Shown here piece after piece: positions 4,305 through 62,963 of a DNA stretch of 64,000 bases. Source of the DNA: Candidatus Staskawiczbacteria bacterium (GTDB lineage Bacteria > Patescibacteriota > Minisyncoccia > Minisyncoccales > Staskawiczbacteraceae); contig JAHFKV010000001.1 in the NCBI GenBank assembly GCA_023245155.1, positions 75,034 through 139,033 of the forward strand. Reading direction: 5' to 3'. The position numbers and the translations under genes were made by a program. Numbering within the stretch: position 1 is the stretch's first letter; the number at the start of each line of letters is the position of its first letter. The notes beneath the pieces are model-generated. The model was given only the letters and a program-made list of their open reading frames with translations. It made no database searches and was not told the DNA's origin.

Positions 4305-4397
4305 GCACAAAGGGGGTCGGGGAAATTAGGTATTTCCCCGTGTAGGAAATTATTCAAAACCGAGGGTTTTGAAGGAGCAAGCCCGAAGGGTGAGCGA
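4305..4397 (+). repeat. 93-nt structured intergenic repeat, copy A
   Basis: Matches the reverse complement of 46977..47069 at 91/93 positions (hand alignment). Contains hairpins CGGGGAAAT-taggt-ATTTCCCCG and TTCAAAACC-gag-GGTTTTGAA. Confidence 0.9.
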
Positions 4398-4426
4398 CCT
4401 AATTGGTACTATTAAACAAAACGAGT

Positions 4427-5005
4427 ATGGAAATAGATTTAACGGGTAAAACACCCGACGTGCGAAATCTGAGTGAATTAGAAAAAGTGGTCTATGACAA
4501 AGTTTGGTTTGCAGCAGCCGATAAAAGTGCGGTGCTGTACCAAATGTATCGTAAATTAAAAATTGAGAATGGTTTGCGCTATGATGTGACGATTATCCCG
4601 CCACGCATGCTGGGCGTGGAATTTGTCAAAACCAAAGGGCACGTTCATGCCGGGTTTTACGGCGAAGTCTACATGGTTTTGGATGGCGAAGGATTGTATT
4701 TTGCGCAAAAAGGCGATGAAGAAAAAATCGAAGATACATTTGTGGTACATGGTAAAAAAGGTGATGTGATTTTAATTCCGGCCGGATACGGACATGTAAC
4801 GATTAATCCGGGAAGTGCACCGCTTAAAACCGCCAATTGGGTGGCCGAAACTGACAAAGGAAATTTTGAACCGTTTGAAAGAAATCAAGGTGCGTGTTAT
4901 TACTATTTGCAAAGCGGCTGGGTAAAAAATCCAAACTACAAACAGGTTCCAGAATTGAGATTTGAAGAACCCAAAAAAGAAGTGCCAGCAAACTTAGATT
5001 TTTGA
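4427..5005 (+). CDS. Cupin-type (archaeal-type) glucose-6-phosphate isomerase
   Basis: TKGHVHAGFYGEVYMVLDGEG ... GDVILIPAGYGHVTINPG matches the cupin PGI family (PF06560). ATG at 4427 is preferred over the track's TTG at 4403. Confidence 0.8.
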   Translation: MEIDLTGKTPDVRNLSELEKVVYDKVWFAAADKSAVLYQMYRKLKIENGLRYDVTIIPPRMLGVEFVKTKGHVHAGFYGEVYMVLDGEGLYFAQKGDEEKIEDTFVVHGKKGDVILIPAGYGHVTINPGSAPLKTANWVAETDKGNFEPFERNQGACYYYLQSGWVKNPNYKQVPELRFEEPKKEVPANLDF

Positions 5006-5028: not shown

Positions 5029-5110
5029 GCCCGGGTGGCGAAATTGGCAACCGCATACGCTTCAGGTGCGTACGCCGCAAGGCTTGCAGGTTCGACTCCT
5101 GTCCCGGGCA
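5029..5110 (+). tRNA. tRNA-Leu(CAG)
   Basis: Acceptor GCCCGGG/CCCGGGC, anticodon arm TACGC-TTCAGGT-GCGTA, long variable arm, T-loop TTCGACT. No encoded CCA. Confidence 0.9.
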
Positions 5111-5118
5111 CATAAATC

Positions 5119-5747: not shown

Positions 5748-7616
5748 ATGATTAAACAAGATATGAGCAACCGCCAAGGGCGGGGTCCCGCTATAAGCGG
5801 GAAAAACACGGTGCAAGGTGCACCACACCAAAAACCTCGGCCGGCAAACCGCGGTAGATTTAAACGCATTGACCGCTCGGCCATTGGCAAAAACTGGAAA
5901 GAAACTCCAGGATTAAAACCCATGGTCTGGAAACCCGAAGACAACTTAAAAATTATCCCTTTGGGCGGGTGCGAAGAAGTCGGCCGCAACATGACCGTCT
6001 TTGAATATGGCCAAGATATTATCATTTTGGACATGGGCCTGCAATTCCCTGAACAAGATATGCCGGGAATTGATTACGTCATCCCGAACACCGAGTACCT
6101 GCGCGGAAAAGAAAAAAACATTAAAGCCGTTATTTTCAGTCACGGACACTTAGACCACATTGGAGCGGCTGCCATTTTGTTAAAAAAACTTGGCAATCCA
6201 CCCATCATTGGCCGACCATTAACCATTGAGATGATTAAGCACCGGGTGGAAGACCACGAACGCGGCAGCAGTAAAAAACTCAACGTGCAATACATTAAAG
6301 ATATTAACGAAAAAGTAAAACTGGGCAACTTTAACATTTCCTTTTTTGCCATTGACCACGCCATCATGGATGCTGTCGGTGTAATTTTTGAAACACCAGT
6401 AGCAACGGTTTTGCACCCTGGCGATTGGACCATTGAAAAAGACCCCGTTGGCCGTGATGTATTGCATTACCACCAATTGGCAAATTTGAAAAAGCCCGGC
6501 AAGCCAACCATTTTAATGCTGGAAGCGTTGGGCGCCATCAACAATAAACCACCCGTAACCGAACAGGAAATGATGGGTAACATCCAAAAAATTATTGGCT
6601 TGGCTCCTGGCCGTACCATTATTGCTACTTTTTCCAGCCAAACTGAAAGAATCAAGCAAGTCATGGAACTGGCAGCTGCCACCAACAAAAAAGTGGCTTT
6701 GGATGGCTTTAGTATGAAAATGAATATTGAACTGGCCACCCAACTTGGCTACATTAAAGTACCCAAGGGCGTAGTCATTCCCGTAGACTCCATTAACAGC
6801 TACCCGGATAACAAAGTCATCGTCATTTGCACCGGAGCCCAAGGCGAAGAAATGGCTGCTCTGCCCCGCATTATCGCTGGCAACCACAAATATATCCGTA
6901 TTAAAAAAGAAGATACGATTATCTTCTCGTCTTCAGTCATACCAGGAAATGAAAGGACGGTGCAACGAGTAAAAGACAACATTTACCGCCTGTCTGACAA
7001 CGTGTACCACAACGACATCATGAACGTGCACGCTTCCGGGCACACCAACATTGATGGTATCAAGCAAATGCTTTCCGAAGTCAAACCGGATTATTTCATT
7101 CCCGTGTATGGCAACCACTTTATGTTAAAAGAAGCTCAGCGCATTGGCTGGGGCATGGGCATTCCAAAAAACAAAACCTTTGTGCCAGACAACGGCAGTA
7201 TTATCAAATTCACCAACCAGGGGGCTGAAGTATTGAAAGAAAAGGTTCCCAGCAATTATGTGTTTGTGGATGGCCTTGGCGTGGGCGACGTGGGCGAAGT
7301 TGTTTTACGTGACCGCCAAGCCCTGGCTCAAGACGGCATGTTTGTGATTGTGACCATTATTGATAGCCAAACCGGCAAAGTCAAAGGCAGTCCGGATATT
7401 ATCAGCCGAGGGTTTGTGTACCTGCGCGAATCAAAAGATTTGCTCTCCCAAACCCGCAAAAAAGTCTTTGAAATTGTGGAAAAATCCGGCGGTCATGGCC
7501 AAACCACGCCCGACTGGAATTATGTGAAAGAAGAAATTCGCAATAAAGTTGGGGACTTTCTGGCCACCCGCACTTCAAGAAGACCCATGGTATTACCGGT
7601 GGTTATTGAGGTATAA
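5748..7616 (+). CDS. rnj: Ribonuclease J (metallo-beta-lactamase / beta-CASP) with a basic ~70-aa N-terminal extension
   Basis: IIPLGGCEEVGRNMTVFEYGQDIIILDMG, the HGHLDHIGA motif and a length and layout typical of RNase J. Confidence 0.9.
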   Translation: MIKQDMSNRQGRGPAISGKNTVQGAPHQKPRPANRGRFKRIDRSAIGKNWKETPGLKPMVWKPEDNLKIIPLGGCEEVGRNMTVFEYGQDIIILDMGLQFPEQDMPGIDYVIPNTEYLRGKEKNIKAVIFSHGHLDHIGAAAILLKKLGNPPIIGRPLTIEMIKHRVEDHERGSSKKLNVQYIKDINEKVKLGNFNISFFAIDHAIMDAVGVIFETPVATVLHPGDWTIEKDPVGRDVLHYHQLANLKKPGKPTILMLEALGAINNKPPVTEQEMMGNIQKIIGLAPGRTIIATFSSQTERIKQVMELAAATNKKVALDGFSMKMNIELATQLGYIKVPKGVVIPVDSINSYPDNKVIVICTGAQGEEMAALPRIIAGNHKYIRIKKEDTIIFSSSVIPGNERTVQRVKDNIYRLSDNVYHNDIMNVHASGHTNIDGIKQMLSEVKPDYFIPVYGNHFMLKEAQRIGWGMGIPKNKTFVPDNGSIIKFTNQGAEVLKEKVPSNYVFVDGLGVGDVGEVVLRDRQALAQDGMFVIVTIIDSQTGKVKGSPDIISRGFVYLRESKDLLSQTRKKVFEIVEKSGGHGQTTPDWNYVKEEIRNKVGDFLATRTSRRPMVLPVVIEV

Positions 7617-10820: not shown

Positions 10821-10825
10821 CATAA

Positions 10826-10858
10826 AGGTATCCAGCGTCCCGCTAAGCGGGACGAGGT
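10826..10858 (+). promoter_or_regulatory. Intercistronic module AGGTATCCAGC-[GTCCCGC-taa-GCGGGAC]-GAGGT
   Basis: The same flanking motifs as the ssb|rpsR spacer (11411..11477), but with a different hairpin. Confidence 0.6.
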
Positions 10859-10879: not shown

Positions 10880-11401
10880 GTGAATTTTAACAAAGCAGTT
10901 ATTTTAGGAAACGTGACACGGGACCCAGAAACCCGGGCCTTACCAAGCGGACAACCAGTGGTTTCCTTTTCTATTGCCACTAACCGCTTTTACACCGACC
11001 AGGCAGGGGCAAAAAAACAGGATACCGAATTTCATAATGTGGTAGCCTTTGGGAAACTGGCTGATATTGCCGGTAGGTACTTAACCCGGGGGGCACTAGT
11101 GATGATAGAAGGCAGGATAAAAACTAGGAATTGGACAAATCAGACAGGCACCAAGCAATACAAAACCGAAATTATTGCCGAAACTATGCAGTTGGGACCT
11201 AGGGCAGCAGGAACATCAATGGCAAGTAAACCCACCACCCCCACTTCCAATCAAGTTTCAACGGGCAGGCCAAACCCAGAACCCAAGATGGAAGAAATCC
11301 CTATTATTGAAGAAAACCAAATGCCCCCAGCCCAATTTGTCAGCGAAGAAGCTCCACAGCCAGAAGACGGAGAAATTGATGTTAAAGATATTCCATTTTA
11401 A
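10880..11401 (+). CDS. ssb: Single-stranded DNA-binding protein
   Basis: OB-fold N-terminus MNFNKAVILGNVTRDPE, Pro/Gln-rich linker and acidic tip ending DIPF. GTG start. Confidence 0.95.
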   Translation: MNFNKAVILGNVTRDPETRALPSGQPVVSFSIATNRFYTDQAGAKKQDTEFHNVVAFGKLADIAGRYLTRGALVMIEGRIKTRNWTNQTGTKQYKTEIIAETMQLGPRAAGTSMASKPTTPTSNQVSTGRPNPEPKMEEIPIIEENQMPPAQFVSEEAPQPEDGEIDVKDIPF

Positions 11402-11410
11402 AAATTAAAA

Positions 11411-11505
11411 AGGTATCCAGCGGAAATCAGGCCGCAAGGAATACTGTATATTAAAAATTAAGCCTGATTTCCGAGGTGAATTTATTCGCTTCGCTACATA
11501 AATTC
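11411..11505 (+). promoter_or_regulatory. Structured leader element upstream of rpsR (two hairpins)
   Basis: AGGTATCCAGC, then an 11-bp stem GGAAATCAGGC/GCCTGATTTCC (29-nt loop), GAGGT, then GAATTTAT-12 nt-ATAAATTC directly abutting the ATG. Homologous to 21680..21770 on the minus strand. Confidence 0.7.
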
Positions 11506-11703
11506 ATGGTTTGTTATTTTTGCCAAAAGAATATTAACGAAGTTGATTACAAAAACACAGAATTGTTGAGCCGTTTTATTTCCGGTTTTTACAAAATAAA
11601 ACCAAGTAAAAAAACTGGTCTGTGTACCCATCACCAACGGGTGGTAGCCACCGCTATCAAACGTGCCCGCCAAATGGGAATGATGCCATATACGCCAAAA
11701 TAG
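11506..11703 (+). CDS. rpsR: 30S ribosomal protein S18
   Basis: MVCYFCQKNINEVDYKNTELLSRFIS...TGLCTHHQRVVATAIKRARQMG. The start is moved to the internal ATG because the track's 10-codon extension is a translated hairpin repeat. Confidence 0.9.
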   Translation: MVCYFCQKNINEVDYKNTELLSRFISGFYKIKPSKKTGLCTHHQRVVATAIKRARQMGMMPYTPK

Positions 11704-21000: not shown

Positions 21001-21679
21001 TAATTTGTAAATCAACCTTGGTAAATAATTCTTTCACCACTTCGGCCCCTGTTCCCGCTTCGAACATTTCCCCGTACTTCATGGAAATATCGTGGTACAC
21101 CACTTCAGATAAAATCCGGAGCGGCTTGATATCTAAAATTTCTTCTTTAACTTTTTCGCGCAATTGTTTATATTCGGTTTTTTCCGCCTCGGTTGCGGCA
21201 CTTTTTGATTTGGTTTTGTATTCCTGCTCTACCGCGTCCAGTAAGCGCTGGCGGGCTTCGTTATCCACCTTGGTAATAATATAAGAAGAGAAATAAATTA
21301 CTTTCTCTAACTGCTGCGAACTCTTATTCAGCACGAGTCCCATGCGGCTGGGCACGCCCCGCAAAAACCAAATATGCGAAACCGGTGTGGCCAGCTTAAT
21401 ATGACCCATACGTTCGCGCCTGACTTGGCTTTTAGTAACTTCAACCCCGCAGCGGTCGCACACCACGCCTTTGTAACGGATTCTTTTATATTTTCCGCAA
21501 GCGCATTCATAATCTTTTTCAGGGCCAAAAATCCGTTCGTCAAACAAACCGTCTTTTTCTGGTTTTTGGGTGCGGTAATTAATGGTTTCTGGGCGGATAA
21601 TTTCGCCGTGTGACCAACTCAAAATCTCCTCGGGCGAGGCTATTTTGATTCTAATTGATTCAATGTCAAGTACTCGCAT
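18083..21679 (-). CDS. rpoC: DNA-directed RNA polymerase subunit beta'
   Basis: NADFDGDQM catalytic motif and Zn-finger cysteines. The start is moved to MRVLDIESIRIKIASPEEI because the track's extra MNLFASLHKF is a translated hairpin repeat. Confidence 0.97.
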   Translation of the reverse strand: MRVLDIESIRIKIASPEEILSWSHGEIIRPETINYRTQKPEKDGLFDERIFGPEKDYECACGKYKRIRYKGVVCDRCGVEVTKSQVRRERMGHIKLATPVSHIWFLRGVPSRMGLVLNKSSQQLEKVIYFSSYIITKVDNEARQRLLDAVEQEYKTKSKSAATEAEKTEYKQLREKVKEEILDIKPLRILSEVVYHDISMKYGEMFEAGTGAEVVKELFTKVDLQITVEELVNEAKDAPPLLKKKILRRLKLFQGMLKAKVRPEWMFMDVLPVLPPDLRPMVQLDGGRYASSDLNDLYRRVINRNNRLKYLQEISAPPVIVRNEKRMLQEAVDALIDNDMRKGVTTTATTGGKRLLKSLAAMLAGKQGRFRQNLLGKRVDYSGRSVIVVGPELKFSQCGLPKTMALEIFKPFVIKRILDKELAYNIRGAARLIEDKVPEVWAILEEVVAGKVVLLNRAPTLHRLGIQAFHPVLTEGETIRLHPLACEAFNADFDGDQMAVYLPLSDEAQKEAREIMLSSLNLLKPQTGLPVIGPFRDIALGCYLMTKMKEPKDSKEVKIYSSKDEAVIAHDYGFVTLTEKIRVPNPKSTEHEVIETCVGRLILNANLPADYPYVSKLIDNKALKALIRDIIEKYPGEESINTLDKIKVMGFEYCTLSGISWGMDDLVVPKEKAQMIKDAENEVERIDSHYEKGLLSHDEKTSQKILLWQGVKTKLEALLKTTLPEDGSVMSIISAGARATWSQPVQMAGMKGLVNNPAGDIIELPVKSSFAEGFNVLEYFISTHGARKGTADTALRTSSAGYLTRRLIDVAHDMIIWEEDCGNKKGLEILRKEADDIEQDVTFKLVGRVVTQDVMSAKDKKQTIVERGDIVTWAQAKQIKEEEVESVHVRSPLTCQSIRGVCQKCYGWDLSRNNVVRLGEAVGVVAAQAIGEPGTQLTLRTHHLGGVVGSGDITQGLPRIEEIFEARAPKGEAVMSLTEGKVTAIDEEKRLVTIQPTAESDAKRKKGAAAKPLPIDYKIPGKIAILVEVGQEVKENQPLCGGNLDLKKLYKSAGLEETQKYILKEVQRIYSSQGVDIHDKHIEVIIQKMFSRIRIKVEGQGEWVPGEIIEWSVFQEEVERLKKAKKEAPIGLQILLGISEVALASESFLSAASFQQTSRVLIKASLEGKEDKLRGLKENVIIGKLIPVGTGFREKGKK

Positions 21680-21770
21680 GAATTTATGTAGCGAAGCGAA
21701 TAAATTCACTTTGAAAATTAGGCTGATATCTATAATATACTTTGTGGCCTAATTTTCATTGCGACACCTT
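21680..21770 (-). promoter_or_regulatory. Structured rpoB|rpoC intercistronic element, homologous to the rpsR leader
   Basis: Minus strand: AGGTGTCGCAA, a 12-bp stem TGAAAATTAGGC/GCCTAATTTTCA (23-nt loop), then the identical GTGAATTTATTCGCTTCGCTACATAAATTC abutting the ATG. Confidence 0.7.
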
Positions 21771-21784
21771 ATTCGCTCGTTTAT

Positions 21785-24700
21785 TTATTTTTTATCGTCT
21801 CGTTCGGTGCGTGGTTTCTCTTTTACTTCCACGCCCATTCCCAAAGACTTTAATTCAGCCACTAGCAAATTAAACGACGCTGGAATGTTTGGATTCCTAA
21901 TTGGCTCGCCCTTCAAAATGCTTTCATAGGTTGTAGCCCGGCCTACCACGTCGTCAGACTTAATCGTCAACATTTCTTGCAGAGTATGAGCCGCGCCGTA
22001 TCCTTGCAGAGCCCACACTTCCATTTCCCCGAAGCGCTGGCCCCCAAACTGGGCTTTTCCGCCCAATGGTTGCTGGGTAATCAATGAATATGGCCCAATG
22101 GACCTGGCGTGCACCTTGTCATCTACCATGTGAATCAGCTTCATCACATACATGTAACCAACCGTAATCGGTTTTGGGAACGGCAAGCCTGAATGGCCAT
22201 CATACAAAGTGATTTGGCCGCTTTCTGGCAATCCGGCTTCTTTTAATTCTTGTTTAATATCTTCCTTATTGGCTCCGAGTAATGAGGGGGTAACTGCCAT
22301 GAAATTCATTTTGTGGGCGGCCCAACCCAAGTGGGTTTCTAAAATTTGACCCAGGTTCATACGGGAAGGAACCGAGAGTGGTGAAAGCACTAAATCAACC
22401 GGAGTTCCGTCAGCCAAGAATGGCATTTCGGCTTCAGAAGCAATTCTTGAAACTACTCCTTTGTTTCCGTGGCGTCCAACCAACTTGTCTCCCACTTTCA
22501 CGTGGCGGACTTCAGAAACTTCCACCTGGATTTTCTTAATGACACCCGGTTCCAATTTATGCCCCAATTCCCGGCTGAAAATTTTCACATTAGTCACTTT
22601 TCCGTGCTTGCCATGTTCAACCCGCATGGAAGTGTCTTTTACATCCTTGGCTTTTTCCCCGAAAATGGCGCGCAGTAAGCGTTCTTCCGGGGTTAATTCG
22701 GCTTCCCCTTTAGGTGAAATTTTTCCCACCAAAATATCATTAGGACCTACCGAAGCCCCCACCCGAACAATGCCCTCTTCATCCAAATCTTTCAGCTTTT
22801 CTTCTCCCACGTTTGGAATGTCTGAGGTAGTTTGCTCATCTCCTAATTTGGTTTCACGGACGTCACAAGTAAAATCTTCAATATGAATGGAAGTAAATTC
22901 AAATTCTTTAACTAACTTTTCCGAAATGGTAATGGAGTCTTCAAACCCCCCTCCACGTAGTGGCAGGAAACAAACTAAAATGTTTCTTCCCAGAGCCAGA
23001 CGGCCCTGGTCAATGGCAGCGCCATCAGCCAGCACATCACCTTTTTTAACATGATCGCCTTTTTGGACAATGGGTTTTTGATGGAAACAAGAATATTGGT
23101 TAGTCCGCACAAAGGTTTGTAATTCATATTCTTGGGTGACTTTTTTCCCACCCTGGTCATACTGAACCAAAATGCGAGAAGCATCTACTTCTTTCACCAC
23201 GCCGTTGGCCTCGGCCAAAACCACTTGGCCAGAATCCCGGGCGATATTCTTTTCAACACCCGTTCCAATCAACGGAGCTTCCGGCCTGATCAAGGGTACC
23301 GCTTGGCGCTGCATGTTTGAACCCATCAAAGCGCGGCTCGCATCATCATTTTGTAAAAAGGGAATCAAGCTGGCAGCAGCGGAAATAAACTGCTTAGAAG
23401 AAACATCAGAATAATCAACTTTGGCAATTTCAATTTCAGCAGGCTCTCCTTTCACCCGGGCCTCCACTTTGTTTGGGGGAATTTCCGGTAAAATTTTACC
23501 ATTTTTATCTAATGGGGTGGAGGCGGGAATGATTACATAGCGTTCTTCTTCCTGGGCTGAAAGATAATGCACTTCGTCAGTTACTTTACCGTTTTTCACT
23601 TTAAAATACGGGGCTTCAATGAAACCATAGGGGTTAACCCGGGCAAACGAAGCCAAATGGCCCACCAGCCCCACGTTTTGGCCTTCGGGAGTTTCAATCG
23701 GACAAATCCGGCCATAATGAGAAGGCTGCACATCCCGCACTTCAAAACCGGCCCGTTCACGCGTTAATCCTCCAGGGCCCGTAGTTGTAAGCCTTCTTTT
23801 ATGTTCCAATTCAGCCAAAGGATTTTCGTTATCCATGAACTGGGAAAATTGGGAAGAAGTGAAAAATTCTTTCACCACTGCCATTAACGGCCGTGGATTA
23901 ATCAGCTGGATTGAGGTGATGGTTGAGGGATCCAAGGTAGACATTTTGTCTTTAATAATCCTTTCCATGCGCATCAAACCCACCCGCAAACGGTTTTGCA
24001 ATAATTCTGAAAGAGTCCGCACACGCCGGTTGCCCAAGTGGTCCACCTGGTCTGCCTTGGCTTCAGGATTATTATTCAACCGAATCACTTCTTTGACCAC
24101 CTCCACTAAATCGGCAATGCTCAAAATGCGTTCTTCTTTGGTAATGGTTGAATCTTTATCTTTTTTCTTGGCGTTCAAGCCGGGTAAGCGTATCCAGGTT
24201 TTCCAGCGGCCAACTTTTGATAAGTCATACCTATCAAAATTAAAGAACATGTTGAAAATCAAATCCTGGGCGGTGTCAGGAGTCACCAGATCCCCCGGGC
24301 GCAGCCTGCGGTAGATTTCCACCAAAGCTTCTTTCTGGTCCTTACAAGTGTCGCGCTTTAAAGTTTCAGCAATATATTTTATTTCACCAGTATCAACATC
24401 TTTAAATTCTTTCTGGATTTTTTCAATGTTTTCCAAACCTAAGGCCATTAATAACGTGGTGGCGGGTACTTTTCTCTTGCGGTTGATTTTTACGCCGATA
24501 AATCCGGATTCTTCCGTTTCAAATTCCAACCAGGCACCGCGGTTGGGAATAATTTTAGCACCAAAAAGATTCCTGCCCTTTGAGCTACGGCTCGTAAAAA
24601 ATGCACCAGGGCTGCGGATGAGCTGGGAAACTACCACCCGCTCAACACCGTTGACTACGAACGTCCCCCGTTCAGTCATTAACGGAAAGTCGCACAAAAA

Positions 24701-38620: not shown

Positions 38621-38652
38621 GAGAAAAATTGCCAAACTTTTTATTGACTTCC

Positions 38653-38670
38653 GTTTATTATATAATAAAC
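38653..38670. promoter_or_regulatory. Perfect 18-bp palindrome GTTTATTATATAATAAAC in the pilM/comF divergent spacer
   Basis: Self-complementary on inspection. It lies 33 nt from the pilM ATG and 17 nt from the comF GTG. Confidence 0.5.
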
Positions 38671-38686
38671 AGAAAACAATAACACT

Positions 38687-39430
38687 GTGGATAAACCAGT
38701 TTTCACCAAGGCTAAACATTTTTTCCTGGAACTTTTTTTTCCTTCCTTCTGTTTGGGTTGCAGTAAAGAAGGGGTATTACTATGCTATGACTGCAGGTCT
38801 ATCCTGGAAATTTCTGAATACCATTATTGCTTGTGCGGCAATAATCCGCTAAGGCTGCCACCTGAATCCAGGCAGGGAAAATGTAGCCGCTGCCAAGACA
38901 AAAAACTTACCGGACTCTACTCCGCTCTTTCCTACAAGGAAAAGTTTTTAACGAGAAAATTAATTCGACAGTTTAAATATGAGCCCTATTACTTAAAAAC
39001 TCTGTCAAAAACATTAGCAGATATTCTTTTGGAACACCTCTTTCTAGCAAAAAAATTAACACCAGAAATTTGGGAAAAGAGTATTATCATTCCTGTGCCG
39101 TTAGAAAAAGGCAAATGGAAAGATCGGGGGTATAATCAATCAGAATTGTTAGGACAAGAGATAGGACAAGCTCTTAATGTCCCACTACTCTTGGGTAATT
39201 TAATAAAAATAAAAAAGACTGATTCCCAAATGAAATTGAAGGCTAAAGATCGGGAAGAAAATGTCAGAGAGGCGTTCAAAGTAAAAAATCCCGTAGAATT
39301 TGCAGGGAAAAAAGTATTTTTAGTTGATGATGTCTATACTACCGGTTCCACCATGGAAGAATGCGCCCGCGTTTTGCGAAACGCGGGCGCCAAAAGTGTC
39401 TGGGGAATTATTGTTGCCAGAGAGGGATAA
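38687..39430 (+). CDS. comFC: ComF-family protein (competence-associated phosphoribosyltransferase-like)
   Basis: N-terminal C..C...C..C zinc-finger pattern and the PRTase motif VFLVDDVYTTGST. Confidence 0.85.
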   Translation: MDKPVFTKAKHFFLELFFPSFCLGCSKEGVLLCYDCRSILEISEYHYCLCGNNPLRLPPESRQGKCSRCQDKKLTGLYSALSYKEKFLTRKLIRQFKYEPYYLKTLSKTLADILLEHLFLAKKLTPEIWEKSIIIPVPLEKGKWKDRGYNQSELLGQEIGQALNVPLLLGNLIKIKKTDSQMKLKAKDREENVREAFKVKNPVEFAGKKVFLVDDVYTTGSTMEECARVLRNAGAKSVWGIIVAREG

Positions 39431-44806: not shown

Positions 44807-46942
44807 ATGATAAATTTGGATACACCGATAGAAGACGTGCCGCGCATTGGCATAAACTACCAAAAAAAGTTAAAAAAACTGGGCATTCAAACCGTCCAGG
44901 ATTTGCTTTTCTATTTCCCCCAGCGGTATGATGATTTTTCGGATGTGATTGAAATTTCCCAGGTTCAGGCGGGCAACACGATTTGCGTACAAGGAGAAAT
45001 TATTGAAACCAACCTGTCTCGCACGTTTAAGCGCGGTATGAATATCATAGAAATTACCGTGCAAGATGGCAGTGGAGAAATTAAAGCCCTTTGGTTTAAT
45101 CAACCGTTTTTGGAAAAAACATTCCGGCAGGGAGATTTTGTATGTTTGGCGGGAAAAGCCAGTCTTGGTAAAAAAGGTATATATTTAAGCAACCCGGTGC
45201 ATGAAAAAATCGGCCAATTTGAGGAGAATGAAGACCTAACACATACCGCCCGCATTATTCCCGTGTATGGCGAAACCAAGGGTGTTTCCAGCCGCTGGCT
45301 GCGTTATATTATCAAGCCTTTGCTGACCCAATTTATTGAAGTGGTGCCGGAAATTTTACCTAAAAATATCTTGGAGAAATATAAATTCATGGGCATTCAG
45401 AATGCTTTGTGGCAGGTGCATTTCCCGGATTCATTTGAAGCGGCGGACGCGGCCAAAGCCCGGTTTTCTTTTGAAGAACTGTTCATCTTGCAACTTTCTG
45501 TTTTACGAGAGAAAGCCAAGCTACTGCAAAAAAAAGCTCCCAACTGCCCCATGGATGCGGATTTGATGAAAAAATTCACTGCCAGTCTGCCCTTTGAGCT
45601 GACGGCCTCGCAGAAACAATGCACCTTTGCCATATTAAAAGATTTAGAAAAAGAAGCGCCCATGAGCCGCCTTTTAGAGGGTGATGTGGGAAGTGGTAAA
45701 ACCGTTGTGGCAGCCATGTGCGCCTTAAATGTGGTTAAATGTGGCTATCAGGTCGCCTTTATGGCACCCACAGAAATCTTAGCCACCCAGCACTACAAAA
45801 GCATTTCAAACATGCTGAAAACTTTTGGCGTTTCCGTTGAACTCTTAACTGGCAAAACTCTAGGACGTAAAAAACTATTGGAAAAACTGTTTGCCGGCAA
45901 AATAGACATTCTCATCGGCACACACGCCCTCATTTCCAAAGGGGTTGAATTTAAAAACTTGGCTTTAGTGGTACTGGATGAACAGCACCGGTTTGGAGTG
46001 GCCCAGCGCGCCCATTTGGTAAAAAACAAACAACTCATCCCCCATTTACTTTCCATGACCGCCACGCCCATCCCCCGCACACTGGCTTTGACGGTGTACG
46101 GCGATTTGGATTTGTCGCTCATCAAAGAAATGCCCAAAAACCGAAAGAAAATCCAGACATTAATTGTTGAGCCCAAACAACGCAAAGAAGCTTATCAATT
46201 TATTACCAGTGAAATTAAAAAGGGCAGAGGAGTGTTTGTGATTTGCCCGAAAATTGATTCCACCAAAACCAAGCTGGAAGAAATGCAAAAAAGGGGGCCG
46301 GTGTCGGGTTCATTCATACCCCAAAATTACAATGTGGCAATGCTGGGCGTGACAGAAATAAAATCGGTTAAAGAAGAATACGAACAGTTATCCAAAGAAA
46401 TTTTCCCCGATTTTAATGTCACTATGCTGCACGGCAAAATGAAACCCAAAGAAAAAGAGCGCATCATGCTGGATTTTAAAAACGGTCAAATTGATGTGCT
46501 GGTTTCCACATCCGTGGTTGAAGTGGGAGTTGACGTGCCCCGGGCCACGGTGATGATGATTGAGGGCGCTGAAAGATTTGGCTTGGCACAACTGCATCAA
46601 TTCCGCGGCCGTGTTGGCAGAAGCGACATGCAAAGTTATTGCTTTTTATTTACCACTTCGCCTGACCAATTAAACCGGAAACGCTTAAAAGCCTTGGTAG
46701 ATTCAAGCAATGGTTTTGAGTTGGCCCAAAAAGATTTAGAAATCCGCGGTCCAGGCCAGGTGTACGGCTACGCCCAGTGGGGTTTGCCCGACATGGCCAT
46801 GCAAGGCCTATCAAACATTTTCTTGGTAGAAAAAACTCGTGCCGCTGCTAAGGAAGTTTTGGAAAAAGACATTAACCTCGCTGACCATCCCTTGCTTAAA
46901 GAAAGAGTCAATCGCCTTAGAACCCAAATCCATTTTGAGTAA
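44807..46942 (+). CDS. recG: ATP-dependent DNA helicase RecG
   Basis: Wedge-domain N-terminus and helicase motifs GDVGSGKT and DEQHRFG. Confidence 0.9.
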   Translation: MINLDTPIEDVPRIGINYQKKLKKLGIQTVQDLLFYFPQRYDDFSDVIEISQVQAGNTICVQGEIIETNLSRTFKRGMNIIEITVQDGSGEIKALWFNQPFLEKTFRQGDFVCLAGKASLGKKGIYLSNPVHEKIGQFEENEDLTHTARIIPVYGETKGVSSRWLRYIIKPLLTQFIEVVPEILPKNILEKYKFMGIQNALWQVHFPDSFEAADAAKARFSFEELFILQLSVLREKAKLLQKKAPNCPMDADLMKKFTASLPFELTASQKQCTFAILKDLEKEAPMSRLLEGDVGSGKTVVAAMCALNVVKCGYQVAFMAPTEILATQHYKSISNMLKTFGVSVELLTGKTLGRKKLLEKLFAGKIDILIGTHALISKGVEFKNLALVVLDEQHRFGVAQRAHLVKNKQLIPHLLSMTATPIPRTLALTVYGDLDLSLIKEMPKNRKKIQTLIVEPKQRKEAYQFITSEIKKGRGVFVICPKIDSTKTKLEEMQKRGPVSGSFIPQNYNVAMLGVTEIKSVKEEYEQLSKEIFPDFNVTMLHGKMKPKEKERIMLDFKNGQIDVLVSTSVVEVGVDVPRATVMMIEGAERFGLAQLHQFRGRVGRSDMQSYCFLFTTSPDQLNRKRLKALVDSSNGFELAQKDLEIRGPGQVYGYAQWGLPDMAMQGLSNIFLVEKTRAAAKEVLEKDINLADHPLLKERVNRLRTQIHFE

Positions 46943-46975
46943 ATTACTTTCGTACTTTTTCTGTTACCCAAAAAC
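46933..46975. repeat. Left copy of a ~43-bp direct duplication spanning the recG stop and a copy of the last 10 glycosyltransferase codons
   Basis: TTTTGAGTAAATTACTTTCGTACTTTTTCTGTTACCCAAAAAC recurs at 47072..47121 with a 7-nt insertion. Confidence 0.9.
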
Positions 46976-46976
46976 T

Positions 46977-47069
46977 TCGCTCACCCTTCAGGCTTGCTCC
47001 TTCAAAACCCTCGGTTTTGAATAATTTCCTAAACGGGGAAATACCTAATTTCCCCGACCCCCTTTGTGC
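46977..47069 (-). repeat. 93-nt structured intergenic repeat, copy B (inverted relative to copy A)
   Basis: The reverse complement matches 4305..4397 at 91/93 positions. Confidence 0.9.
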
Positions 47070-47071
47070 GT

Positions 47072-47121
47072 TTTTGAGTAACGGAAAAATTACTTTCGTA
47101 CTTTTTCTGTTACCCAAAAAC
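47072..47121. repeat. Right copy of the direct duplication; it contains the real 3' end of the glycosyltransferase gene
   Basis: See 46933..46975. Confidence 0.9.
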
Positions 47122-48622: not shown

Positions 48623-48628
48623 ACGTTG

Positions 48629-48703
48629 CGACCCCACCGGGATTTGAACCCGGGTTACAGGAGTGAAAATCCTGTGTCCTAGACCAGACTAGACGATAGG
48701 GTC
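48629..48703 (-). tRNA. tRNA-Glu(UUC)
   Basis: The minus strand reads GACCCTATCGTCTAG...CAGGA-TTTTCAC-TCCTG...TTCAAATCCCGGTGGGGTCG. It ends 6 nt before the glycosyltransferase ATG. Confidence 0.9.
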
Positions 48704-62886: not shown

Positions 62887-62963
62887 GGGCCTGTAGCTCA
62901 ACTGGCTAGAGCAGACGACTTATACTCGTCCGGTTGGGGGTTCGAGTCCCTCCGGGCCCACCA
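62887..62963 (+). tRNA. tRNA-Ile(UAU)
   Basis: GGGCCTGTAGCTCAACTGGCTAGAGC... (Ile-like body), anticodon arm GACGA-CTTATAC-TCGTC. The encoded CCA's final A is the A of the next ATG. Confidence 0.85.

Follow-up and report, generated by a model that had tools for sequence, protein, structure and literature searches.

Introduction

Short repeats that lie between bacterial genes include several groups. The Correia elements (CREE/NEMIS) of Neisseria and the enterobacterial ERIC/IRU repeats are intergenic, imperfect palindromes of ~100-150 nt that are co-transcribed and form long RNA hairpins, and the Correia hairpins of Neisseria are RNase III substrates that change mRNA level. Mycobacterial interspersed repetitive units (MIRU), on the other hand, are tandem 46-101-bp units with small coupling open reading frames (ORFs) and are not palindromic hairpins. 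For Patescibacteria (candidate phyla radiation, CPR), we know of almost no characterized regulatory RNA or repeat elements. Here, we analyze a start-codon element that occurs twice in a 64,000-nt stretch of a Candidatus Staskawiczbacteria genome (assembly GCA_023245155.1, contig JAHFKV010000001.1, positions 75,034 to 139,033; hereafter the window, in whose numbering window positions are given), once before rpsR and once before rpoC. An earlier examination of the same DNA (the original prediction) had taken it for a two-hairpin leader of these highly expressed genes.

The safest statement is that the element is an intergenic repeat of ~100 nt, low in copy number and imperfectly palindromic, with a 3' end that forms the stretch just before a start codon. 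Our preferred reading, to which we assign a probability of roughly 0.4, is that it is a palindromic repeat of the Correia/ERIC kind, transcribed as a structured leader or intercistronic spacer. It is a dispersed family at non-orthologous genes and is not tied to rpsR/rpoC.

Two Copies of the Element in the Window

The 33-mer GTGAATTTATTCGCTTCGCTACATAAATTCATG occurs exactly twice in the window, at 11476-11508 (+) and 21677-21709 (-), as originally reported, and in 0 of 100 dinucleotide shuffles. The first copy belongs to the ssb-rpsR spacer and the second to the rpoB-rpoC spacer, and homology between them extends past the 33-mer to cover ~100 nt upstream of each ATG. From 5' to 3', the family consensus consists of segment a, the stem 1 5' arm, an apex, the stem 1 3' arm, a' with loop 2, a'' and the ATG. 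Below, P1 denotes the long-range helix formed by segment a with a' and loop 2, and hairpin 2 denotes the start-codon hairpin formed by a' with a''. The parts of the rpsR copy are as follows.

11399-11401 (+): ssb stop codon (TAA); the ssb product ends ...DIPF
11402-11420 (+): 5' flank, with an AAGGT box common to other copies
11421-11432 (+): stem 1, 5' arm CGGAAATCAGGC (inverted-repeat scan)
11433-11461 (+): stem 1 apical loop, with GTATATTA at 11446-11453
11462-11473 (+): stem 1, 3' arm GCCTGATTTCCG (inverted-repeat scan)
11473-11492 (+): local alternative hairpin, in this copy only, in which GAGGTGAA (11473-11480) pairs with TTCGCTTC (11485-11492)
11476-11508 (+): conserved 33-mer, comprising a' (11476-11485), loop 2 (11486-11497) and a'' (11498-11507)
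11506-11508 (+): rpsR ATG, the last 3 nt of the 33-mer

Those of the rpoC copy, on the opposite strand, are the following.

21785-21787 (-): rpoB stop codon, 6 nt upstream of the base of the P1 helix
21767-21778 (-): segment a GAGCGAATAAGG, the 5' strand of P1, whose partner is TTTATTCGC(TT) of a' and loop 2
21747-21758 (-): stem 1, 5' arm TGAAAATTAGGC (inverted-repeat scan)
21724-21746 (-): stem 1 apical loop, with GTATATTA at 21733-21740
21712-21723 (-): stem 1, 3' arm GCCTAATTTTCA (inverted-repeat scan)
21677-21709 (-): conserved 33-mer, comprising a' (21700-21709), loop 2 (21688-21699) and a'' (21678-21687)
21677-21679 (-): rpoC ATG, the 3' end of the 33-mer

In both copies stem 1 is a perfect 12-bp inverted repeat, enclosing a loop of 29 nt (rpsR) or 23 nt (rpoC). 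The arms of the two copies differ by two substitutions and one A/T indel, each of the three matched on the opposite arm, which confirms the original observation that the upstream stems differ yet stay complementary. The box noted in both loops, GTATATTA, is indeed present in each, and the whole window holds 3 matches to it vs. 1.46 expected. Predicted folding was stronger than that of shuffled sequences for the rpsR copy (z = -2.1) and for the rpoC copy (z = -5.4). Segment a of the rpsR copy is degenerate (11402-11420), so that no P1 helix forms there; the GAGGTGAA:TTCGCTTC pairing is predicted to be a local substitute for P1, and it would exclude hairpin 2 and take up the GAGG that had been read as a Shine-Dalgarno (SD) sequence. 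A covariance model (R1) run over the window with filters on and off returned no third copy, and Rfam 15, searched at the gathering threshold and at E<=10, gave nothing above noise, in keeping with the earlier view that this is not a described motif. Elsewhere in the rpsR operon, a short GC-rich hairpin with no T-run, CGTCCCGC-TAA-GCGGGACG, lies between rpsF and ssb at 10825-10845.

Start Codons of the Downstream Genes

Both 33-mers end in the ATG at which RpsR (MVCYFCQK) and RpoC (MRVLDIESI) begin, and homologues support the original assignment of these codons as the true starts, with the shared upstream peptide MNLFASLHKFM as an ORF artefact. Members of ~140 RpsR homologue clusters are 64-65 aa long and start at the position of the window ATG; by its RpsR homologues, the window belongs to Patescibacteria, beside Candidatus Staskawiczbacteria. 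The gene caller on this genome began RpsR at the upstream GTG (75 aa) and RpoC at the ATG (1198 aa), while the RpsR of a relative, P0010, was called from an upstream ATG and begins MILFASLHKIM. That translation begins at the upstream GTG or ATG, with the 10 additional residues as a conserved N-terminal peptide, is a reading that gains from these two calls and from a frame that is open in most copies, but it is next to impossible in our view. Apart from the lengths of the RpsR homologues and the call of RpoC from its ATG, the upstream start is out of frame in two copies (by a 2-nt insertion in L012, and by its place 31 nt before the ATG in L004), a single peptide would have to sit on unrelated proteins, and the orthologues of an MscS-like protein encoded behind a further copy are 228 aa long with no N-terminal extension. 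Because the frame is broken in L012 and L004, the peptide would be fused to unrelated proteins, and the MscS-like family does not have it, the extension is not translated into protein. A conserved upstream ORF within the element was also considered and rejected, as frames are not conserved among the copies.

For annotation, this means that the element creates in-frame false starts: the public RpsR record is 75 aa rather than 65 aa, P0010 is 74 aa, and both misannotated RpsR proteins begin M[NI]LFASLHK[FI]M. An X-padded profile of the artefactual peptide scored 32-39 bits on the local copies and yielded no candidate via the word index. Orthologue length as a proxy for the presence of the element proved uninformative, since callers choose the ATG even where the element is present (P0121).

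Distribution of the Element Family

The comparison covered nine sequenced copies at six independent loci, from about five lineages. All nine lie between co-directional genes in the sense orientation, and they end 0-2 nt before an ATG. Exact or near-exact cores precede rpsR in the window and in L002/L003, and rpoC in the window. In L002, the DNA of P0010 (RpsR 76% identical), GATTTTAT...ATAAAATC replaces GAATTTAT...ATAAATTC, and stem 1 has a wholly different sequence that is still self-complementary. Diverged members precede rpoC in L004 (RpsR 86% identical, same synteny), where the AT-rich apex is missing and the hairpin is retained, and rpsR in L016, where the covariance model scored 22.8 bits. 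Before its rpsR, L004 carries an unrelated AAGTT/AACTT palindrome.

A 20-nt core pattern was scanned over 185,579 species genomes. Four full copies were found, all in the Ca. Staskawiczbacteria metagenome-assembled genome (MAG) MFD03044.bin.2.105, together with one further, odd match in a Sphingobacteriaceae MAG. Exact-pattern scans gave only two unrelated-looking matches in a metagenome collection and 0 matches in a viral collection. With a partial copy included, MFD03044.bin.2.105 has 4 full + 1 partial in ~0.95 Mb, against 2 in the 64 kb of the window. None of its four full copies is at rpsR or rpoC; three precede genes for an MscS-type membrane protein, a trypsin-like (HtrA-type) protease and a YtxH-like protein, the last with an ECF sigma gene behind it, and the fourth precedes a gene that the contig end truncates. 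Its rpsR junction has only a 13-nt remnant, CCATAAAATCATG, and its rpoB-rpoC junction (L007) an unrelated hairpin. Across lineages, the ssb-rpsR junction holds the element in three, the remnant in one, other hairpins in four (unrelated long AT-rich ones in L017, L018 and L021) and none in two (L019 and L020), where the spacer is just 19-36 nt, unstructured and A-rich. The closest MscS-like orthologue for which the DNA was read, 83% identical, is likewise without the element. The family is restricted to a subclade of Candidatus Staskawiczbacteria. The search for further copies that had been proposed as a check did turn them up in related genomes, with covariation among them, and the same copies, standing before MscS-like, YtxH-like and HtrA-like genes, contradict a leader reserved for rpsR and rpoC or for highly expressed genes.

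Such a distribution bears on whether the element is selfish or neutral palindromic DNA with no dedicated function, i.e., a foldback resembling a miniature inverted-repeat transposable element (MITE) or an AT-rich palindrome that grew in place. Transposition, or recombination between A-rich gene starts that resemble each other, would then account for its spread, and any effect on expression would be incidental. Patchiness, with different genes carrying it in different genomes, is what this would produce, as are the 13-nt remnant before rpsR, the empty MscS-like locus, and the turnover at the ssb-rpsR junction, with unrelated AT-rich hairpins in four lineages and nothing in two. Segments a and a' at its ends look like terminal inverted repeats, the copies in L011 and L013 have tandem partial duplications beside them, a 33-nt deletion (L005) and an N-gap (L006) fall exactly at stem 1 in the species of L004, and an ORF of the Sphingobacteriaceae MAG contains 28 nt of the core, complete with an a:a' mini-hairpin. 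Random insertion, however, would not be expected to place six of six independent loci in one orientation and 0-2 nt from a start codon, and copy number is very low. We found no consistent short target-site duplication at the copies, L011 and L013 carrying 12-25-nt partial direct repeats of the element. Moreover, stem 1 diverges strongly within one genome yet stays paired, unlike in recent MITE copies, and the rpoC copy is retained with compensated divergence in the window genome and L004. The element resembles a MITE only in part, in its foldback and dispersal and not in its single orientation (both would be expected) or its low copy number, and we regard selfish or neutral DNA as a real, if lesser, possibility.

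Several observations at these loci are recorded here in their own right. One species, represented by three assemblies, differs exactly at stem 1 of its rpoC-leader element (L005 16945-16975 and L006 15205-15300 vs. L004 18820-18870), with a full hairpin in L004, the 33-nt deletion in L005 and the N-gap in L006; the difference is either true polymorphism or an artefact of assembling a palindrome. The Sphingobacteriaceae match (L009 1075-1125, JANWIB010000008.1) is exact over 28 nt of the a'/loop 2/a'' core, ATGATTTTATTCGCTTCGCTACATAAAA; a GCGAATA box 13 nt upstream is complementary to it and would form the mini-hairpin with it. The match lies within a 268-aa ORF on the opposite strand that has no Pfam match, and could represent a fragment passed between phyla or an insertion into the gene. 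On a GC-rich contig, L014 (2030-2660), 24 nt of the core are matched in non-coding sequence; an IS110-like transposase gene lies downstream, and two copies of GTACTTCGCGGGTGAGCACAGGGATG are nearby. By a rough estimate, a 20-mer match to the database is possible by chance, whereas the 28-nt match is too long for chance. L010 has, ~1.3 kb from its element copy, a reverse-transcriptase ORF (1383-2381, -) with LPLGNLTSQ and YADDF and the look of a diversity-generating-retroelement type, and a gene for a Y/N-rich secreted protein lies between the two. Finally, lineage-specific, AT-rich repeats are found close to starts in relatives (L004 9926-10000; L017 28-126; L018 114-253; L021 2953-3049; L007 19440-19510 (-); L022 1440-1500). 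These spacers contain 7-8-nt tandem or inverted repeats (AACTTTAT, AATCTTA, TTTGAAAT, ACCTAAA, TTCTAGA), many of which form long hairpins, and they suggest rapid turnover of palindromic sequence at gene starts.

Competing Helices

Across the family, segment a has the consensus ~GCGAATAAGG, extended in some copies to TAGCAAGC-TGATAAAGG. Stem 1 is variable yet self-complementary, and its apex is AT-rich and quasi-palindromic (GGTATATTATATATC; consensus C(A/C)CAAGGTATATTATATATCAGG), with a TATATT box that is kept in most members. The consensus of a' with loop 2 is (A/G)TGATTTTATTCGCTTCGCTAC, that of a'' is ATAAAATC, and the ATG follows directly. For the two hairpins that had been named originally, an alignment of eight sequences had 89% of cells paired and 10 pairs altered on both sides, a signal matched by 0 of 500 shuffles, with slid controls at 30-45% paired. 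Nearly all of this covariation came from stem 1, while hairpin 2 contributed one A:U to U:A swap (window vs. MAG/L002) and one G:U to A:U change.

Minimum-free-energy folds revealed the additional helix P1, in which the upstream box GCGAATAAGG of segment a pairs over a long range with the 5' half of hairpin 2 and loop 2. Stacked on stem 1, P1 would yield a hairpin of ~90 nt and exclude hairpin 2. It was predicted in eight of nine copies, the window rpsR copy being the exception. The a/a' pairing spans 9-18 bp and, together with stem 1, makes terminal inverted repeats and a long foldback in eight of nine copies; in six of eight, the P1 conformer was at least as stable as that with hairpin 2. 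As MAFFT leaves the bulged 5' strand out of register, P1 covariation was read from a per-sequence pairing table anchored on a'. Compensatory differences in P1 were C:G to U:A in L002, G:C to G:U in L010 and L012, and G:C to A:U in L016, and in L004 an altered loop 2 (GCTTTT) stands opposite an altered upstream strand (AAGAGC). The tally of covariation is two positions for P1 and one swap for hairpin 2, in a small sample and with kinship ignored. Since loop 2 pairs in P1, its conservation is accounted for. Hairpin 2 alone is worth only ~-5 kcal/mol, falling to -1.3 in L004 and 0.0 in L016, while P1 and stem 1 persist in both. P1 is the better conserved of the two, and a:a' and a':a'' are mutually exclusive helices with compensatory differences in each. 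The start-codon hairpin originally described is predicted in the window copies, but it is weak, is lost in diverged members and has a competitor, P1, that had been overlooked.

In the transcript, the predicted extended helix would comprise 25-35 pairs, where at least ~20 bp are needed for an RNase III site. The overall structure is a simple extended hairpin with no conserved multi-helix, ligand-binding core. The compensatory changes that had been taken to indicate a functional RNA or DNA structure are present; nevertheless, symmetric changes in a palindrome cannot tell an RNA helix from a DNA palindrome.

Translation and Transcription Signals

Start contexts were surveyed at 36 well-supported genes of the window. 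An SD core (AGGA/GGAG/GAGG) at -20 to -4 was present in one of the 36, compared with a background of 7%; this is a genome with essentially no SD usage. Before the starts, A is abundant, G is scarce and C occupies -1 and -2, and the tail of the element, ACATAAA(A/T)TC-ATG, matches this context at a middling rank only. In the window copies, the 33-mer tail CTACATAAATTC resembles the same A-rich start context and has TACATA at -11 to -6. A TAnnn[T/A] hexamer starting exactly at -12 was found in 13 of the 36 genes vs. 1.25 expected, often preceded by TGn, which suggests widespread leaderless mRNAs in this CPR genome. Examples of these start contexts are the genes at 10327-, 10386+, 31282-, 49881+, 55828-, 58397- and 59038-. 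A literature search on SD usage, MITEs and intergenic RNA motifs in CPR/Patescibacteria found nothing relevant.

In light of these data, a dedicated rpsR/rpoC leader whose start-codon hairpin creates a split SD, as the original prediction held, becomes highly improbable. The rpsR copy does have GAGGT (11473-11477) just 5' of hairpin 2, and both window copies stand before genes for core information processing. But GAGG is confined to that copy, where it is predicted to pair with loop 2, and other copies read AAAGTG, GAAATG, GACATG, GAAGTG or GATGTG at this place. Copies also precede unrelated genes, and the element is absent from the rpsR junction of five relatives and from the rpoC junction of a related MAG. 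With SD cores rare and a leaderless signature at -12, the split-SD proposal has no basis in this genome.

That same signature is what a promoter/operator cassette acting at the DNA level would draw on. Here, the 33-mer would be the core promoter of a leaderless mRNA, with TACATA (-11 to -6) as -10 element and the A of the ATG as transcription start, and it would overlap a palindromic operator, ATGATTTTAT-N12-ATAAAATCAT, for a dimeric regulator whose half-site co-evolution mimics covariation; in a variant, TATATT of the stem 1 apex is the -10 element. Besides the strength of the -12 signature, TACAAT/TACAAA/TACATT-type hexamers are common in the genome and TGn extended -10 elements are frequent. 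A fixed distance to the ATG and strict identity that includes the loop would suit a promoter better than a simple hairpin, TATATT stays in the apex of most lineages though the stems change, and folding has no strand asymmetry. However, TACATA starts at -11 (-13 in L012) instead of the modal -12 and ends in A, not T. No -35 or TGn at either -10-like box is conserved among the copies, -35 positions falling in the variable stem, while the clear promoters of the genome carry TTGnnA or TGn, those of tRNA genes in the window being ordinary TTGnnA-17-TAnnAT. A promoter scan called nothing in the rpsR copy and gave a marginal 9/12 match in the rpoC copy, the L004 member has a hairpin without the AT-rich apex, and an operator does not explain the a:a' covariation. 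Taken together, we consider a promoter/operator cassette unlikely, if still a serious candidate. L011 and L013 each have a perfect TATAAT ~7 nt before segment a, a position from which it would start the transcript exactly at the 5' strand of P1.

Canonical A-tract/GC-stem/T-tract terminators are present elsewhere in the window, and they are extended palindromes. The A-rich segment a, stem 1 and the U-rich, complementary a' (UGAUUUUAUU) could be seen as an analogous module that terminates the upstream gene and leaves the downstream gene to be re-expressed from its own start, but a terminator scan called none at either copy. The U-tract is interrupted and does not begin until 4-6 nt past the stem, in the window copies the stem bases are AU-rich, and a terminator between rpoB and rpoC would itself be surprising, all of which makes this interpretation very unlikely.

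Two further features of the window concern starts of other genes. In three cases, the ATG of a long ORF follows the end of a tRNA gene on the same strand within 0-7 nt (Leu-CAG 5029-5111, ATG 5119; Ile-TAT 62887-62963, ATG 62963; Glu-TTC 48628-48703(-), ATG 48622(-)), and tRNA 3' processing at these sites would leave near-leaderless mRNAs, by analogy with mitochondrial tRNA punctuation. A palindrome with 21-nt arms, 86% complementary and centered between TTTATTAT and ATAATAAA, occupies 38641-38682 between the divergent genes at 38719 (-) and 38687 (+), and may be a shared promoter/operator region.

Possible Role of the Element

According to the preferred reading of a transcribed palindromic repeat, the element would be transcribed by read-through from ssb or rpoB, or from a promoter just 5' of segment a, and would fold co-transcriptionally into the long hairpin of P1 and stem 1 (~30-35 bp). 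This hairpin could work as a processing site of the RNase III type or as a 5' or 3' stability element and exonuclease barrier, as in Correia, ERIC and REP sequences, and the A-rich, SD-less tail UUCGCUACAUAAAAUC-AUG would be left single-stranded for initiation. Were P1 lost, whether by cleavage, by a ribosome terminating at the upstream stop codon or by a transcript starting inside the element, a' would re-pair with a'', and the weak hairpin 2 would then cover the start context along with the first two bases (A and U) of the AUG. By these steps of folding and switching, the element would tune expression of whichever gene follows. The window also has an RNase J gene (5748-7616).

Several points weigh against this reading. 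Nine sequences of about five lineages stand behind it, and every step at the RNA level is inferred. Predicted folding is about as good for the sense strand as for the antisense strand (G:U counts 25 vs. 21), and there is no strand-specific RNA signature; compensatory changes in DNA palindromes can also come from templated repair or from co-evolution of a symmetric operator with a dimeric protein. The predicted accessibility of the start region did not shift consistently between full-length and truncated RNAs. The element is dispensable, as seen from the short unstructured ssb-rpsR spacers of relatives and from the 83%-identical MscS-like orthologue that does without it, and the window rpsR copy has no P1. 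Furthermore, the near-perfect identity of the 33-mer within the genome, loop included, exceeds what structure alone explains. The transcribed-repeat, promoter/operator and selfish-DNA readings are not mutually exclusive.

A more speculative idea, which we think quite unlikely, is that the element acts as portable "punctuation" in a CPR lineage that is SD-less and largely leaderless, serving genes for which a promoter 12 nt before the ATG cannot be relied upon. If this were true, the hairpin would target the transcript either to endonucleolytic processing or to hairpin-bridged termination-reinitiation, and the downstream mRNA would have a short leader or be near-leaderless and protected by a 5' hairpin, in analogy to the mitochondrial case mentioned above. 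Beyond any one interpretation, the element is an undescribed noncoding family in Patescibacteria, and its alignment and covariance model could seed a clade-wide search. An element that abuts the start codon and is able to expose or cover the AUG would also provide a handle on the expression of internal cistrons in an SD-less CPR genome.

A Second Repeat in the Window

A 102-nt repeat, GC-richer, with internal hairpins and unrelated to the start-codon element, occurs at 4305-4406 (+) and 46968-47069 (-) with 94% identity and has no Rfam match. The second copy is bracketed by an exact 35-nt direct repeat (46941-46975 and 47087-47121), like an insertion with duplication. The first precedes the ORF at 4403-5005, whose counterpart in L004 has a faint LAGLIDADG match.

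Comparison with Known Systems

The features above set the element apart from several classes of cis-acting sequence, and it fails the tests for a ribosomal-protein or RNA polymerase leader, a split SD, a riboswitch and an intrinsic terminator. Like the S6:S18 leader of rpsF and the L10 leader, with its rplL-rpoB attenuator and RNase III site, it lies inside the rpsF-ssb-rpsR and rpoB-rpoC operons. Unlike these leaders, it stands before rpsR and rpoC instead of the first operon gene, has no Rfam counterpart, is found before non-ribosomal genes as well and lacks conservation at orthologous sites. The likeness to the split SD of phage T4 gene 38, a hairpin between a purine-rich box and the start codon, is limited to one copy; the box is absent from all others, and the organism does not use SD sequences. 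Riboswitch platforms and RNA thermometers likewise have two exclusive helices that share a strand, as a' is shared here, one of which covers the initiation region, and a weak, AU-rich sequestor. The element differs from them in having no ligand-binding core, no SD to mask and no Rfam match, and its downstream genes (rpsR, rpoC, MscS-like, YtxH-like and HtrA-like) form no coherent regulon.

MIRU are comparable as dispersed intercistronic repeats of fixed orientation to transcription that touch the flanking stop and start codons, but the present element has neither a conserved upstream ORF nor a tandem array. With Correia and ERIC repeats it shares the intergenic imperfect palindrome, the AT-rich center, the terminal inverted repeats and a patchy presence among relatives. 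It departs from them in its very low copy number, its single orientation, a 3' end at the start codon, the lack of a visible TA target duplication, an internal stem that diverges yet stays paired, the extra 3' segment a'', which gives rise to the alternative start-codon hairpin, and its SD-less CPR host. By analogy, therefore, the element is most like the palindromic repeats of the Correia/ERIC type, while its orientation-locked, intercistronic placement recalls MIRU.

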